Source: a virus (Duplodnaviria > Caudoviricetes). From it: 38,716 nucleotides of DNA. A program made the translations under genes and the position numbers. This document shows, in pieces, positions 11,023 to 17,710 of the stretch. The stretch spans positions 1 to 38,716 of the IMG/VR virus record IMGVR_UViG_3300017770_000042; one strand, given 5' to 3'. Each line of letters opens with the position of its first letter. The stretch's first letter is position 1. The notes below the pieces were generated by a model, which did not search any database, had not been told where the DNA came from, and worked only from the letters and a program-made list of their open reading frames with translations.

Positions 11023-13428
11023 TTATGCAAAGAAAAAGGAACTCTCAAGCACGTGGTCTAAAACAAGATTACCTTTAGTTGGTATTGGTTCTATCTCTTT
11101 GTGTCTGTGTTCAGGTAGAACTTCTAAAAGATAATTCCTAAACTCTTCTAGTACATCCATCTGTGAATACATCTCAACAAATGCAGTACGTAATGCACCC
11201 CACATTTCTTCAGCATCTGCAGCATGAGTACCATAGCTATCATGTACCATTGCAAAAGAATGTATGTCTAACTGCTTGGCAACATGAAGAGTAATCATCA
11301 GGTGACTAGCATCAATACTATGTACAAAGTTAGGAGAGATACCATTAGCCTGTCGGTTCTTATCTAACTTACCTGTCTGTGCATACACTCTAGGTTTAAA
11401 TACTTTGCCAAGTAACTTGGTTTGTATCTGACTAGACTTAACTTCTTGGTATGCCTGTAGCACAGGAAGATTACATGGTGTGTCCCACCTGATAGGTAGT
11501 CCTTCTGAAGATGCAACCCTTGCTGCTTTTTGTAACCATGCCATAGCATCAGTTGCTGCATGAACAACCTCAGATATAGATTGCCATATCAACTTGGACA
11601 AGAAGGTTGCTGCTTTAAATACATCCTCACCGAATGGATGTGAGATACCTTTGTCACGTTGCTCAACAATATAATCCATTACAAAATCTGTAAAAGAATA
11701 TTGCTTACCACCATAAGGCAACACCATACATGGACGTTTGCAACAAGACCTAGATACACCATACTCAATCCACTTCTGTGCTAAATCATCTGGCATTTCT
11801 TTTAGCTTATGTGTAACTGTATCAGCTACCTTCTGATAGATGTCTTGTGGGTCATCCATTGGTACAAGATTAACTTCTTTACCTGTAGTCTCTGACCTTA
11901 ACATTGCTGCAAAATGTTGGAGTCCATTACAACTACCATCAGCACAGACAGGAAGACTAGACTCAAAGTTCTCAGGGTCAGCAACAAGACCTTCCCATTC
12001 TTTACAGAAAGCTAAGAACTGAAAAGGTTTATCAGATTCTTTAGCCCACCATAGGTCAGCCAATGGGTCTTTGGCACAGGATAGTATTCTCTCTTGGTTA
12101 TCTTGCACCCAATCAATACGTTCTTGCAAAGATGATTTATCATAACCAAACATATTTGCCCCATGTATAGCTAAGTGACAAGCCCCTTGCTCATTTAATT
12201 TTTTTGCCTCAGAAAAAAGCAGTAGTCCTTTGGCAAAGTCTGTGCCCTGTGGGTTCAGATAGTTTGGTACTGCATAGATACGTCCTCTAAAATCTAACTG
12301 ATACACCATGTAGATAGCCTTCTCATCTTTGAACTTGTCAGCTATCTGTATTGTCTTCCTTAACAAGAGTCTCTTTGATGCCATACGATTGTTCTCTGTA
12401 TGTATGATGACTGCATTTCTTTTCCAATTAATCTTAGCTTGTTTATTGGTAGCAATATCATGTGGCTTGTTAGGAATTTCTGCGTTCTCTGATGGTGGTA
12501 AGCTAGGTAAAGCTATGCCACTATCCCAGATGTCCTTCAGTACCTGTAAGACAAACTGATTGACCTTGAACCCTGTCTGTTGCATGGCATTGACTGCTCC
12601 ATACACCATAGGCATATCAAAGTGCTTGAGTTCTTGTAGGTAGTTCTTGTTCTCAGTCTTAACAAGAGGTATCTGACGAACATGATGAGTGTGATAACCA
12701 CCATCCGTAGGTGTAGTCCAATCTTTAGGTGGAACAACACAAGGATAAAACTCAGGTCTGAGTATCTCTTGGAAAGCACTAAGGTCTTTGATTATCTTTA
12801 GTGTAGTTTCTGATGCCAACAAGAGTTGTCTTCTCTTGCCACCCTTCATCATACTCTTCAGTTCTAACAGACCTGTATTGACTATAGTTAAATCAAGTAA
12901 GGCATTACCCACCAAGAGTTTCTCTCTCTGTGTCCATGATGCCCACTCTTGACCATCTCTTCTTGATGACTCAATTAACTTACGTCTCTTATAAGTATAG
13001 CCTGATGACCTCTTGTCTAGGTCTTTCTTAACTACCCTATACAGACGAGGATTGTTTTCCTCAAAGGTTCTTATCCTCAACTCATCTTCAATAGCCATAC
13101 CTAAAGCTACTGCAGAACTACTATAGTCTCTCTTCCTAGTTATCTGTGATAGTGCCACCCTCAAGGTGATGACTGCTATGACTGATGGCTCTAGGTCATT
13201 CAACAAGACTGCTGATGTAGCTGACTTACCTGACCTACCCTTCATAGAAGATTCTATATGCTCATTGATGGCTTCTTCTACCTTTAAGACTGTCTGTCTC
13301 AAGAGGTATTGACCATAGGTAGTTGTAGATTCTTGGGCTTTCTCTGCTTTTTGTAGGTTATTCTTGTGGAATCTGTGGATTCCTTCTTCTCGCATTTCAC
13401 GTTCTAACGATACTTGTCGTGTGTCCAT
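11023..13428 (-). CDS. Single-subunit DNA-directed RNA polymerase, T7 gp1-like
   Basis: 801 aa; DFRGRIY, DGSCNGLQH, RSCCKRPCMVLPYG, PNFVHSIDA, HDS, C-terminal FFFA. Confidence 0.98.
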   Translation of the reverse strand: MDTRQVSLEREMREEGIHRFHKNNLQKAEKAQESTTTYGQYLLRQTVLKVEEAINEHIESSMKGRSGKSATSAVLLNDLEPSVIAVITLRVALSQITRKRDYSSSAVALGMAIEDELRIRTFEENNPRLYRVVKKDLDKRSSGYTYKRRKLIESSRRDGQEWASWTQREKLLVGNALLDLTIVNTGLLELKSMMKGGKRRQLLLASETTLKIIKDLSAFQEILRPEFYPCVVPPKDWTTPTDGGYHTHHVRQIPLVKTENKNYLQELKHFDMPMVYGAVNAMQQTGFKVNQFVLQVLKDIWDSGIALPSLPPSENAEIPNKPHDIATNKQAKINWKRNAVIIHTENNRMASKRLLLRKTIQIADKFKDEKAIYMVYQLDFRGRIYAVPNYLNPQGTDFAKGLLLFSEAKKLNEQGACHLAIHGANMFGYDKSSLQERIDWVQDNQERILSCAKDPLADLWWAKESDKPFQFLAFCKEWEGLVADPENFESSLPVCADGSCNGLQHFAAMLRSETTGKEVNLVPMDDPQDIYQKVADTVTHKLKEMPDDLAQKWIEYGVSRSCCKRPCMVLPYGGKQYSFTDFVMDYIVEQRDKGISHPFGEDVFKAATFLSKLIWQSISEVVHAATDAMAWLQKAARVASSEGLPIRWDTPCNLPVLQAYQEVKSSQIQTKLLGKVFKPRVYAQTGKLDKNRQANGISPNFVHSIDASHLMITLHVAKQLDIHSFAMVHDSYGTHAADAEEMWGALRTAFVEMYSQMDVLEEFRNYLLEVLPEHRHKEIEPIPTKGNLVLDHVLESSFFFA

Positions 13429-13551: not shown

Positions 13552-13606
13552 GTGCCCAGGGTCGGACTCGAACCGACATGACTGTTAAGTCGAGGGATTT
13601 TAAGTC
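13552..13606 (-). mobile_element. attP core: 3' half of tRNA-Leu(TAA)
   Basis: Minus strand GACTTAAAATCCCTCGACTTAACAGTCATGTCGGTTCGAGTCCGACCCTGGGCAC: anticodon loop with TAA, long variable arm, T-arm GTCGG-TTCGAGT-CCGAC, acceptor strand. 5' half absent; lies just downstream of the integrase. Confidence 0.9.
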
Positions 13607-13651: not shown

Positions 13652-14683
13652 TCAGCCTGTCATATTGTCCATAAATTTGTCATCAGATTCTAACACTCTA
13701 CTCGCATCTAAAAGATTTTGCGTATCTAGGTGTGCATATCTTAGAGTCATGTGTATAGACTTATGACCAAGCCATTGTTGTACAACTTGCAGTTGTATTC
13801 CTCGCTGAACAAGACGAGATGCACAGGTGTGACGTAAGCTATGTAAGACAAACTCTTTGTCATCTTGTAGACCCATGTCCTCACGTAGCCATTCCCATAC
13901 ACGTCTTATCTTGTCTTCTGTAAGATTAAATATAGGTTTGTTTTTTAGTCTGCCTTCTGTGTCAATACGAGTCTGTAATATATTTTTGACTCGTCTTGTC
14001 AACGGAACAGTACGAGGATGTCCGTTCTTAGTTTCCCAAACAGAAAGAGTTCCTTTGTCTAGGTCAACGTCACGACAGGACAAACGTAAGCCCTCTCCTC
14101 TACGTAAACCTGTGTCCAACAGGAACAAGAAAAAATCTCTGCAGTCTATCTCTTGTTTAGCAGTTAAGATTTGAACAAGATAGGCTTCTTCTTCTTGGAT
14201 TAAATATCTTAGTCTACCATTCTTAGTTGGTATCCAATCAAGTTTAGGTTTCCTATCTATCCACCCTCTGTCTACTGCTAGATTTAGTGACTTAGATATA
14301 CAAGCACTAATCTTGTTGAGTGATGATGCTGATGCACCATTCTTTTTGAAGTGTTGTATAACGTCATCAATCAGAGTGGCACTTATGTCTGCAATAGGAA
14401 CATGACGTCCCATGACATCAAGTATTTTATCTTGTCTACGTATCTGTGTTAGACCCCAATCAGAGTCTGACCAATACTTATCTGCAGTTTTACGGAACAA
14501 GATTTCAGATGTCATACCTAAGACACAGTTTGCCTCTGGTAAAGGTAACCCATCTTCAATACATTTCATACAATGCTTCTCAAGTTTGACTGCATCATTC
14601 CTAGAGGAACATGACTTGCGAAATACGACACCCTTCTTACGAATGTCTACTTGCCAAGCATTTGCTATTTTTCTAATTGGCAT
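13652..14683 (-). CDS. int: Tyrosine integrase
   Basis: TGLRRGE (R), TKNG (K), HSLRHTCASRL (HxxR), WLGHKS (H), TLRYAH (Y). Confidence 0.95.
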   Translation of the reverse strand: MPIRKIANAWQVDIRKKGVVFRKSCSSRNDAVKLEKHCMKCIEDGLPLPEANCVLGMTSEILFRKTADKYWSDSDWGLTQIRRQDKILDVMGRHVPIADISATLIDDVIQHFKKNGASASSLNKISACISKSLNLAVDRGWIDRKPKLDWIPTKNGRLRYLIQEEEAYLVQILTAKQEIDCRDFFLFLLDTGLRRGEGLRLSCRDVDLDKGTLSVWETKNGHPRTVPLTRRVKNILQTRIDTEGRLKNKPIFNLTEDKIRRVWEWLREDMGLQDDKEFVLHSLRHTCASRLVQRGIQLQVVQQWLGHKSIHMTLRYAHLDTQNLLDASRVLESDDKFMDNMTG

Positions 14684-14718: not shown

Positions 14719-14973
14719 TTAAAATAAAGGGTCAAACAAGATACCTTTTTGCATTAATTTATGATAATGATTTGCTTGTGATTTGTAGAACTCTGCTCGT
14801 TGGGAGTTCTCGTCCCATTCAAAGTCATACTGAAGTTGACGTAGCTTTTTATATTCGCTTACTACGTCAACAAGATGTGTGTTTGTTGGTATTGGGTCAA
14901 TGTACAAGTATCTTCTCCTCTTTAACTCTGTAAAAATCTGAATCATTAGTACATATATCGTTATCCTCATCAT
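14719..14973 (-). CDS. Hypothetical early protein (true start probably ~14907)
   Basis: ORF track; fills the gap before the integrase. Confidence 0.55.
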   Translation of the reverse strand: MMRITIYVLMIQIFTELKRRRYLYIDPIPTNTHLVDVVSEYKKLRQLQYDFEWDENSQRAEFYKSQANHYHKLMQKGILFDPLF

Positions 14974-15187
14974 AATAACAAGAGTAGATAGAACAATATG
15001 TCACATTAGTAACATCATCAGTCCATATATTAAAATCATATGGTCTATCTCTGTACCAAAATGAGTGCCAAGTATCACCAATGTCATCATTTTGTATTGC
15101 TTCTGCCCACATAGTTTTTACTGAAGCATCAACAAACAATTTAAATTTATTACTTGTTTTATATTCAAGTTCAATCAGGTTCATCAT
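14897..15187 (-). CDS. Hypothetical early protein
   Basis: 96 aa, AAGGA RBS, packed in operon. Confidence 0.7.
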   Translation of the reverse strand: MMNLIELEYKTSNKFKLFVDASVKTMWAEAIQNDDIGDTWHSFWYRDRPYDFNIWTDDVTNVTYCSIYSCYYDEDNDICTNDSDFYRVKEEKILVH

Positions 15188-15347
15188 CAGTCCTTTCTAT
15201 AGGTAAATAAACGTCAACATGAGAGTTACAATTAGGGTTAGGACAAGAGAGGTTAGTGACTATACCTTCGTATGCATAGCCATCCTCCTCGCTTATATCA
15301 TGGTCACCACCCCATATTAATTCAGTATTACAATGCCAACAGTTCAT
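15171..15347 (-). CDS. Small zinc-ribbon protein (58 aa), not in ORF track
   Basis: MNCWHCNTELIWGGDHDISEEDGYAYEGIVTNLSCPNPNCNSHVDVYLPIERTDDEPD; start overlaps the upstream stop (TAATG). Confidence 0.8.
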   Translation of the reverse strand: MNCWHCNTELIWGGDHDISEEDGYAYEGIVTNLSCPNPNCNSHVDVYLPIERTDDEPD

Positions 15348-15709
15348 TAGTTTCCCTTAGTACAATAAGTATTTATTTGTGAGTCATCACCATACTCAGT
15401 ACCATGATACTCAACAGAAGACGTATCAAGATGGGCTACTTGTCCTTCAGCATAACCATGCTCACTACATAATTCTCCTACTTGTTCATCAGTCAATGGA
15501 ACGTCTGACTCTACAGTCCATGTCCTGATGTCAACTGATTGTTCTTCATGTGTATATCTATACTTCACAGAGTCCTCCTCTAAAGTTTCTAATCGTTCTA
15601 TCATTTGTTTATATTGTTCGTCATTACTTTGAGTACAACCATCAAGACCTAACATATCTTTGATAGCATACTTAACCTTTAATAGTTCTAGTTTAATTTT
15701 CTGTGTCAT
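15347..15709 (-). CDS. Hypothetical acidic early protein
   Basis: 120 aa, TAATG coupling on both sides. Confidence 0.7.
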   Translation of the reverse strand: MTQKIKLELLKVKYAIKDMLGLDGCTQSNDEQYKQMIERLETLEEDSVKYRYTHEEQSVDIRTWTVESDVPLTDEQVGELCSEHGYAEGQVAHLDTSSVEYHGTEYGDDSQINTYCTKGN

Positions 15710-15951
15710 TAAACTTGTTCCTTTATAAATACTTTATTCCAAGTTTCTTCAATCTCATCATCAAGATTACCTTCTTCAATAAAATCTAGTTGGTCTTTGA
15801 CGTATTGCATACGACATTGTTCAAGTGTCCAAAAGTCTGTTGCTACTTCTTCAAAAAACAATACAGGTTGAAGTTCTTCCTTGCTCATATTTAATGCTTG
15901 GTAATATAAAATATTAACCAATGCTTTTTTATATCGTGTTTCTACTTTCAT
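15709..15951 (-). CDS. Hypothetical acidic early protein
   Basis: 80 aa, GGAG RBS. Confidence 0.7.
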   Translation of the reverse strand: MKVETRYKKALVNILYYQALNMSKEELQPVLFFEEVATDFWTLEQCRMQYVKDQLDFIEEGNLDDEIEETWNKVFIKEQV

Positions 15952-15954
15952 TGT

Positions 15955-16242
15955 TTACTCCACTTCAATACCAATTTGGTCTACGTCATTTATAGTTAAC
16001 TTAATAGTATCTCCAACTTTGATGTACTTCTTCCACATAGGAAAAGCTATACGTCTATCTTTCCTACCCTTAGTCCTAAATAGTTTAAGAGTACAATCAT
16101 CTTCGTATATACCTCTAATCATGTAGTAAGCACCATAAGTATTGAATGGTTCTTCACCAAAGTAATGCTCAAAGAAACCCATGACAGACTTGTTAGCATC
16201 TATACAAGACTTGTCATACATTGTTTGTGTTACAGTAATCAT
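15955..16242 (-). CDS. Hypothetical early protein
   Basis: 95 aa, strong GGAGG RBS. Confidence 0.75.
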   Translation of the reverse strand: MITVTQTMYDKSCIDANKSVMGFFEHYFGEEPFNTYGAYYMIRGIYEDDCTLKLFRTKGRKDRRIAFPMWKKYIKVGDTIKLTINDVDQIGIEVE

Positions 16243-16251
16243 TTAGTCCTC

Positions 16252-16410
16252 CTATATATTTAATTGGCTTAAGTTATCTAAGGCTAAGTTATCTAGTACT
16301 AAGTACCTTACCTCTGTATAACAATCATCACATAATAATAAATCTGATATATTGTTTGCCATATCTTCAGGGTTACCCTTAACCTCTTTACATTTACCAC
16401 ATTTAATCAT
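16252..16410 (-). CDS. Small zinc-finger protein (52 aa), not in ORF track
   Basis: MIKCGKCKEVKGNPEDMANNISDLLLCDDCYTEVRYLVLDNLALDNLSQLNI; two CxxC; GGAGG RBS. Confidence 0.8.
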   Translation of the reverse strand: MIKCGKCKEVKGNPEDMANNISDLLLCDDCYTEVRYLVLDNLALDNLSQLNI

Positions 16411-16431: not shown

Positions 16432-16483
16432 TACTTGTAGACACATGGAAAAACTATGAAGAAAAGCCATGTGTCTACAAATA
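16432..16483 (-). promoter_or_regulatory. Long leader hairpin (RNase III-site-like)
   Basis: Perfect 14-bp inverted repeat TTGTAGACACATGG (16435-48) / CCATGTGTCTACAA (16467-80), extended by a G-U pair on the minus strand. Confidence 0.65.
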
Positions 16484-16549
16484 CAAACTTACATATAGGA
16501 AGTGCTATATAAAATTACAAGAGGGAACAAGAAAAAAAATTTATGAAGG

Positions 16550-16564
16550 GAACAAGAAGGGAAC
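16550..16564. promoter_or_regulatory. Alphaproteobacterial-type LexA (SOS) box over a candidate early promoter
   Basis: GAAC-AAGAAGG-GAAC = GAAC-N7-GAAC; extra half-site at 16525-28; minus-strand TTGTTC-N17-TAAATT overlaps it. Confidence 0.65.
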
Positions 16565-16667
16565 AAGATGCAAAATATGGTGAATTTTTGGGAAATTTTA
16601 GAATATAGATTATTAACTTGTTAAATAAAATTCTCGAGCTGAGTTTTTTTAATTAATTTTAGGCAAT

Positions 16668-16705
16668 AAAAAAGGTCTATAAAAATTAATCTATAGACCT
16701 TTTTT
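16668..16705. terminator. Intrinsic terminator (potentially bidirectional) closing the first-entry module
   Basis: AAAAAAGGTCTATA...TATAGACCTTTTTT inverted repeat directly after the 16706 stop codon. Confidence 0.75.
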
Positions 16706-17314
16706 TTATTTAACCTTTTCAATAATAGTAGTCGTTTTATTTTTGGTGTAACAAAGTAAACAATCTTTACATTTAGAAAAACAATTTATTTTAAAATCAT
16801 TAACTTTGTCTTTAGTAATATTATTAAATGTTTTATCAAAATGTTTAATTGGAAAATAAACAGGTTTGTTTAATTTACTATTTGAATAAACCAAAAATAA
16901 GTTTTTAGGTTTTTTATGAGTATCAAAAAATATGGTTATTAAATCATATCTTTTAGACCATAATGTAAAATTACAATGTTTATTCTTTTTTGCAATATTT
17001 ACCAGATTTTCAAGATGTATTAAATTAATTAATTCACCATGCGAATTGAACCTAAAATAACTATTAAATATAGTAGGTAATAAAGATTTTTGAATTAATT
17101 GCTCACTTAATAAACGACTATTCTTATCTAAAACATTTACCATATTTTTACGAAAAGTTTTTAATGATTTTTGGCTATAACATAAACTACAAATAGACTT
17201 TTTATTTTTAGCTTGTTTACTACAATAATCATTAGTTAAGGTATTTGTTGAAATACTATTAATTAACTCTAGTTTTCCAGAACCTTTTGAAATATGTATT
17301 TGTGAAAATTCCAT
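16706..17314 (-). CDS. Phage GP88-like Cys-rich protein (radical-SAM-like features)
   Basis: Start MEFSQ at 17314 with AAGGGG RBS; C-x9-C-x2-CY, FRFNSHGE, LWSKR, C-terminal C-x3-C-x2-C-x2-C. Confidence 0.65.
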   Translation of the reverse strand: MEFSQIHISKGSGKLELINSISTNTLTNDYCSKQAKNKKSICSLCYSQKSLKTFRKNMVNVLDKNSRLLSEQLIQKSLLPTIFNSYFRFNSHGELINLIHLENLVNIAKKNKHCNFTLWSKRYDLITIFFDTHKKPKNLFLVYSNSKLNKPVYFPIKHFDKTFNNITKDKVNDFKINCFSKCKDCLLCYTKNKTTTIIEKVK

Positions 17315-17476: not shown

Positions 17477-17710
17477 TTAGAACCTACTATCACTAAAACG
17501 TGATAACCCACGTTTATTTAATATATAACTAAAAGCTATATCATAAGATTTACCACCAAATACACTATGTACAATATGACATAATTGTTTAGTTGAAAAA
17601 CCTTTAGTACTTGAGTTTTTAGCTTCTATAATTAAATCATCAACGTATTTATGGACATCAACAATTAAATTATAACTATCTTGTAGCCTGTTAGCTTTTT
17701 CATTAATCAT
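17477..17710 (-). CDS. Hypothetical early protein
   Basis: 77 aa, AAGGTG RBS, TAATG coupling. Confidence 0.65.
   Translation of the reverse strand: MINEKANRLQDSYNLIVDVHKYVDDLIIEAKNSSTKGFSTKQLCHIVHSVFGGKSYDIAFSYILNKRGLSRFSDSRF

Follow-up and report, generated by a model that had tools for sequence, protein, structure and literature searches.

A Clade-Wide Repeat Cluster at the Second Early Promoter of T7-like Phages and Its LexA-Type Register in a MarR-less Branch

The window, which is the whole stretch of 38,716 nucleotides that was analyzed here, comes from a marine T7-like phage; the virus record is complete, and the main genes are all on the minus strand. The T7-like RNA polymerase and gene order, the tyrosine integrase, and the tRNA-type attP between the integrase and the polymerase, which is the usual position of attP in pelagiphages (10.1101/410191, in the part available), are those of the temperate Autographiviridae. 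The window also encodes a terminase, a capsid protein, and a class II ribonucleotide reductase, and the top matches of its RNA polymerase among cultured phages are from pelagiphages (44%). The features of the region are as follows.

11023–13428, minus strand: T7-like RNA polymerase
13553–13606, minus strand: attP, the 3' half of a gamma-like tRNA-Leu(TAA) without an encoded CCA, between the integrase and the RNA polymerase
13652–14683, minus strand: tyrosine integrase, at the end of the second early gene run
14492–14502, minus strand: fourth, single copy of the repeat unit (TCTTGTTCCGT), within the integrase gene
14719–16410, minus strand: second early operon, seven small ORFs without MarR
16435–16480, minus strand: 14-bp perfect inverted repeat in the second-operon leader (z −7.4)
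16492–16521, minus strand: candidate promoter P2, CTTGTA-N17-CTATAT / TTGTAA-N17-TATATG, conserved in all 8 close relatives
16512–16517, minus strand: TAATTT, candidate −10, which by-eye alignment would make the orthologue of the TATAAC in the promoter of the relative L259
16522–16532, minus strand: repeat unit 3, the third copy
16538–16566, minus strand: candidate promoter P1 with the sequence TTGTTC-N17-TAAATT, shared by 7 of 8 close relatives and lost in L015
16547–16557, minus strand: repeat unit 2, 11 bp after unit 1
16550–16564, minus strand: GTTC-N7-GTTC arising from units 1 and 2, the highest-scoring alpha-type SOS box of the genome at 18.5 bits
16558–16568, minus strand: repeat unit 1 (TCTTGTTCCCT), containing the −35 of P1
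16666–16707, minus strand: terminator-like hairpin after the gp88-like gene, dividing the first early operon from the repeat cluster
16706–17314, minus strand: gp88-like early gene, common to Roseobacter phage CRP-5 and pelagiphage Greip (52%)
17477–17710, minus strand: 77-aa ORF of the first operon, a candidate binder with three helices and weak winged-helix-like matches

The original prediction was that the repeats form a host LexA box on the early promoter of a temperate phage that lacks a repressor of its own. The sequence elements on which it was built are present. The sequence AGGGAACAAGA occurs exactly three times in the window, at 16522, 16547, and 16558, the GAAC-N7-GAAC at 16550–16564 is the sole exact match in the window, and the gene run ends, as described, in the integrase at 13652–14683. 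Both promoter sequences that had been named (TTGTTC-N17-TAAATT and TTGTAA-N17-TATATG) were found, and neither is among the nine consensus hits of the genome promoter scan. The LexA-type box overlaps the weak candidate P1 and lies about 30 bp upstream of candidate P2, which we take to be similar to the rhizobial promoter consensus CTTGAC-N17-CTATAT. The proposed terminator is a stable hairpin with T tails at approximately 16666–16707 (z −5.6), although it was not listed by the terminator scan. The inverted repeat in the second-operon leader is possibly an RNase III site of the kind seen in T7 early RNA. Two RNA runs contained small shares of the virus, as contigs. An antisense ECF-sigma promoter reading was dropped, since by eye there is no shared −10 at the correct distance.

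The alphaproteobacterial SOS box is GTTC-N7-GTTC, to judge from the available parts of the papers that describe it (PMC3323433, PMC8565304). A matrix for this box was constructed from 84 pooled sites of alphaproteobacterial lexA and recA promoters, in which sites were sought in the N7 register only. The exact motif was found in 25 of 28 lexA upstream regions (30 loci fetched, 2 left out), and a site within one mismatch was found in 17 of 29 recA upstream regions. The window site, at 18.5 bits, has the top score in its genome, and the median for the host sites is 17.6; 5 of 100 simulated genomes, and none of 1000 simulated intergenic regions, had a site that scored as high. The pair is an exact direct repeat with host-like flanks, in which TT precedes each half. 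A single exact occurrence of the eight-base pattern in a genome is at the chance level (mean 0.99; 59 of 100 shuffles). Gamma-type and Gram-positive-type LexA boxes were not found in the window, and TTAA-N7-TTAA, the CtrA motif, was not found in this intergenic region. The box is unchanged in 7 of the 7 close relatives that span it, but since these are 90–100% identical the conservation among them says little; none of the 12 listed substitutions falls inside the units, which is not significant.

The window's group and L237, its closest divergent relative and likewise without MarR, form one clade (support 100) amid MarR-bearing lineages in an RNA polymerase tree that was made by a quick method with 40 rows. 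MarR is found in every integrase-bearing sister lineage (~70% RNA polymerase identity) that covers the region, and in the window the best E values from two MarR profiles against 653 six-frame segments were 0.44 and 0.46. Because the MarR-less members form a single clade among MarR-bearing lineages, a single loss of MarR is likely. L237 has two near-perfect boxes of 20.5 and 21.8 bits in the corresponding gap, directly behind the first-operon terminator. None of the eight MarR-bearing sisters with a whole early region has a site above 12.1 bits, and three other MarR-less integrase lineages (L286, L320, and L333) are without a box (10.3 bits at most). The box and the integrase are both kept in the close relative L005 although the tRNA half of attP is gone. 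Exact matches in L268 and RHEph21 were discounted as coding and low-scoring. Conservation among relatives had been offered as one check on the LexA claim. At the orthologous site in divergent relatives the N7 register is not kept: eight of the 15 clade records have a spacing of 10 bp, and L237, with 20/13 bp, has its separate boxes nearby.

The unit is represented across the clade by the word TC(A/T)TGTTCC(C/G)T. In 22 clade loci this word was counted 34 times on the early sense strand, never on the early antisense strand, and never in 154 kb elsewhere; in the 15 loci left after dereplication it was found 24 times on the early sense strand and nowhere else, and 17 outgroup loci have none. For 300 shuffled words the mean was 0.28 and the maximum was 6, an enrichment that is partly circular because the word was drawn from these same loci. 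Both in L237 and in phages with MarR, the copies cluster at the promoter that follows the terminator of the first operon. The word is kept at one promoter and on one strand across ~70% RNA polymerase identity and unalignable flanks. The cluster is also found in the complete integrase-less genome G006, and it is therefore not tied to lysogeny.

The spacing of the copies differs between lineages. A close pair 11 bp apart is found in 7 records of the window's group and nowhere else in the clade, and in the other 8 of the 15 clade records the close pair is 10 bp apart. The copies in L237 are 20 and 13 bp apart. In the MarR-bearing L259, L264, and L260 the spacings are 10, 13, and 23 bp; they are 10 and 60 in L256, 22, 10, and 37 in L253, 10, 13, and 44 in L593, and 10, 14, and 19 in the integrase-less L017. 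With 10 bp in most clade records and 20/13 in L237, the cluster predates the LexA register, and by eye the window pair and the boxes of L237 both resemble the 10-bp pair with one base added. A search for the paired word gave 48 viral hits, 15 of which are from this clade, and most of the others lie in ORFs or are spaced 15–24 bp; the 10-bp form is restricted to this clade among the 48, bar one unplaced hit. The last copy in L259 lies inside TTGACA-N17-TATAAC, which by its position is a repressor-like geometry, and the counterpart of unit 3 is in the promoter spacer directly before a −10 in L259, L264, L256, and L593. A palindrome-like GTTAG-N6-CTAAC, possibly a MarR operator, was noted just upstream of the cluster in L259 (6760–6820), L264, L256, L593, and L253.

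The statement that the genome has no HTH repressor was borne out for MarR, which is absent, and for the early ORFs, none of which matches an HTH family, but the 77-aa ORF at 17477–17710 is weakly winged-helix-like. This ORF has no Pfam or PHROG hit and no profile match to MarR. Its structure was modeled from 13 sequences (pLDDT 75), and many of the top structural matches of the model are winged-helix domains, the best with Z 7.4 and rmsd 2.9 over 70 aligned residues; all of the matches have Z < 8, which the structure tool classes as a common arrangement. The term "repressor-less" is therefore not secure. Atlas searches with two early ORFs gave scores under 0.9. Members of the 77-aa family were found in the window's group, L237, L017, L245, L259, L264, and L621, and no homologue was found in the cluster-bearing L256 and L593 or in the single-copy L232, L234, and L235. 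In the L234 group, the single copy of the word is instead followed directly by a Cro/C1-type HTH gene; this arrangement, together with MarR, was seen in L234 (6620–6820), L232, L235, L265, and L278.

The host is likely, in our judgment, to have an alpha-type LexA, and the closest cultured relatives of the RNA polymerase, gp88, and class II ribonucleotide reductase infect Alphaproteobacteria. The attP tRNA, on the other hand, looks gammaproteobacterial. In the genomes sampled, the tRNA half is matched with at most two mismatches in 25 of 301 Gammaproteobacteria versus 0 of 161 Alphaproteobacteria, and at three mismatches in 1 of 161 Alphaproteobacteria; a stricter pattern was absent from 401 Alphaproteobacteria, and the 14 alphaproteobacterial hits among 120 tRNA hits have 3–6 mismatches. 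tRNAs restored by a phage may differ from the host copy, according to the part of 10.1101/410191 that is available. Exact attP tRNA patterns gave no hits in species genomes and no host-type hits in metagenomes, all eight metagenome hits to the attP flanks were unintegrated phage with no junctions, contigs from four runs held no att junction and only other tRNAs (5–8 differences), and the record G007 held phage DNA only, with no junction. Among four gammaproteobacterial genomes with a matching tRNA, CTGT-N8-ACAG was found at lexA in two and the alpha box in none. A GTTC-N7-GTTC at recA of the gammaproteobacterial genome G569 was dismissed since it overlaps the start codon, and a member of the L237-type integrase cluster that is filed under a Lentimicrobiaceae bin, on a 38.6-kb contig, is probably a misbinned whole phage. 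The gammaproteobacterial sequences upstream of lexA in L445 (G632) and of recA in L446 (G635) contain CGAACAATAA instead of CTGT-N8-ACAG, and the LexA of G632 is divergent; order-level searches around G632 and G144 had two genomes and one genome in scope, respectively. The attP itself is variable. Three of the seven aligned close relatives (L005, L007, and L009) are without the tRNA half and the hairpin and keep a full-length integrase, and L010 has a complete tRNA-Leu(TAA) between MarR and the integrase (1064–1150), with a short core alone left at attP.

LexA-type boxes were also found in other phages. The sole strong box in the fetched early regions of 11 named T7-like records, most of which were covered at the record start only so that left-end promoters filed at the record end were missed, is that of Roseobacter phage CRP-804 (OR420734.1), a cultured T7-like roseophage with a known alphaproteobacterial host. 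This perfect alpha SOS box lies over the −10 of TTGACT-N17-TAGTTT (L341, 1702–1737) and precedes the gp4-MarR-integrase run; no such box was found in the fetched record starts of CRP-403 and CRP-118. Sites of at least 15 bits occur in 14 of 72 other loci having a gp88-like gene, including a complete cobavirus-like genome that has no tyrosine integrase and a genome of 55 kb that has. Strong alpha boxes lie ahead of early genes in L027, L034, L050, L052, L053, L066, L068, L076, L078, L080, and L084, and in most of these cobavirus-like and 55-kb marine phages the boxes are paired or arrayed. Paired boxes in the 11-bp register were estimated to occur in ~280 viral stretches (124 seen in 28 of 64 parts), compared with 11 for the N9 control; 70 of the 79 stretches with flanks are intergenic, and a T7 RNA polymerase or integrase is in none of the flanks. 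In a distant T7-like phage of 67% GC, a 17.5-bit alpha box lies ~300 bp upstream of MarR (L270, 7975–7989).

We suggest that the repeats are a clade-wide operator cluster for a clade-specific regulator, not primarily LexA, that represses the second early operon, and we put the chances of this interpretation at about even. The conservation, spacing, and position of the cluster, the loss of MarR, and the restriction of the word to one strand of the early region, over the second-operon promoter, are observed; the binder, the negative sign of control, and the use of the candidate promoters are inferred. The 77-aa winged-helix-like protein is the best candidate for the binder, though taken by itself a rather doubtful one, and the site is asymmetric, such that a host factor could equally read it. 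As this protein accumulates from the first operon after infection, it would turn down the second early promoter, and in the prophage the same regulator would keep the integrase run quiet. To judge from the gene order, integration at attP would disconnect the early promoters and the RNA polymerase gene (cf. the LUZ100 model, PMC10134795, in the part available), and control of the integrase run would then be enough to govern excision. In the MarR-less branch, the 11-bp register coincides with that of alphaproteobacterial LexA and may add an input from DNA damage, which is conceivable but somewhat less than an even prospect. The operator-cluster mechanism leaves the two separate, near-perfect LexA-type boxes of L237 unexplained.

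In the reading originally proposed, a host alphaproteobacterial LexA bound to GTTC-N7-GTTC replaces MarR, silences the prophage, and frees the integrase run upon DNA damage. The motif is present in 25 of 28 alphaproteobacterial lexA promoters, the window site scores near the host median and at the top of its genome, and MarR loss coincides with LexA-register boxes on the branch of the window and L237, although that coincidence is one evolutionary event only. The box on the −10 in CRP-804 and the alphaproteobacterial hosts of the closest cultured relatives argue in the same direction. However, the orthologous repeats are out of register beyond the window's group, the cluster is found in an integrase-less genome and LexA-type boxes in a complete integrase-less phage, the MarR-less lineages L286, L320, and L333 are without a box, the box persists in the attP-less L005, the attP tRNA is gamma-like, and the box lies about 30 bp upstream of the start of P2, the promoter that is conserved best. 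The proposal is supported in part, and we consider it quite unlikely that LexA holds lysogeny in this way. An equally slim prospect is that the MarR-less lineage turned an ancestral 10-bp operator pair into an 11-bp LexA box by a one-base shift, that integration would silence the RNA polymerase gene, and that the host SOS response alone would trigger integrase expression and excision.

Lysogeny need not enter if one host factor, either a LexA that tolerates relaxed spacing or a response regulator bound head to tail on repeats of 10–11 bp, times early transcription in phages of any lifestyle. Every unit contains the good LexA half-site TGTTCC, pairs in the 11-bp register are common in viral contigs, including an integrase-less cobavirus-like genome, and clusters are present where a 77-aa homologue was not found. 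The restriction of the 10-bp form to this clade, with one unplaced exception in 48 viral hits, stands against such a general factor, as does the relaxed spacing, which is without support here because the host lexA and recA sites were sought in the N7 register only; we regard this reading as unlikely. A functionless local duplication that matches the LexA box by chance would agree with the one exact match expected per genome, with the 90–100% identity of the close relatives, and with the nonsignificant 0 of 12 substitutions in the units. It is made very improbable by the presence of the word at the same promoter, on one strand, in lineages of ~70% RNA polymerase identity with unalignable flanks.

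A literature search, with most subscription journals outside its range, turned up nothing on the clade word or on LexA sites of Autographiviridae, and the clade-wide cis-element with its lineage-specific LexA register is real and apparently undescribed. It bears on how lysogeny is maintained and ended in T7-like phages. Integrase was reported in 625 of 1143 marine Autographiviridae populations (PMC12361551), and the role of MarR in T7-like lysogeny is a proposal only (PMC10134795), according to the available parts of these papers. The clade provides a defined cis-element, a candidate binder, and natural variants with or without MarR, with or without the integrase, and with 10 or 11 bp spacing. 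CRP-804 and its host are a cultured pair for a direct test of LexA control. If the LexA overlay is true, it would show how control of an operator passes from another regulator to a repressor of the host; if the one-base-shift reading is true, the window would represent a T7-like lysogen that has no repressor of its own and depends on host LexA, and CRP-804 would be the cultured test case for LexA control in the Autographiviridae.

The window pair resembles the alphaproteobacterial SOS box in being an exact direct repeat with a host-level score that overlaps or adjoins promoter-like sequence. It differs in that it belongs to a cluster of three copies, for which the usual spacing in orthologues is 10 bp, and in that a host of the matching class is no more than likely. 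Pasto is a temperate T7-like phage with a MarR-integrase module. Such modules are described for LUZ100 (PMC10134795), HTVC019P-type pelagiphages (10.1101/410191), and the roseophages CRP-804, CRP-403, and CRP-118 (PMC11092137), and in the available text these phages and Pasto share with the window the order of host promoter, small genes, integrase, tRNA-type attP, hairpin, and RNA polymerase. They differ from it in that the window's branch lost MarR, in that the clade word is absent from them, and in that LUZ100- and Pasto-type modules have a MarR-like gene directly upstream of the integrase, which is not so in the window. The available literature on the LUZ100, HTVC019P-type, and CRP phages contains no mapped operator. 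Conserved sites that resemble those of a host regulator, CtrA, occur in alphaproteobacterial phage promoters independent of lysogeny (PMC9437464, available part), as the LexA-like sites do here in phage promoters, but the motif is a different one. Host-LexA control was demonstrated by experiment for GIL01, CTXphi, 186, and SPC32H (PMC9437464, PMC4551915, and PMC6182141, in the parts available). None of these four is T7-like according to those sources, and the element of the window occurs also in an integrase-less relative. The likeness is that a host repressor site on an early promoter would tie induction to DNA damage, and in those systems, as the same sources describe, a small phage protein often joins the host repressor there.
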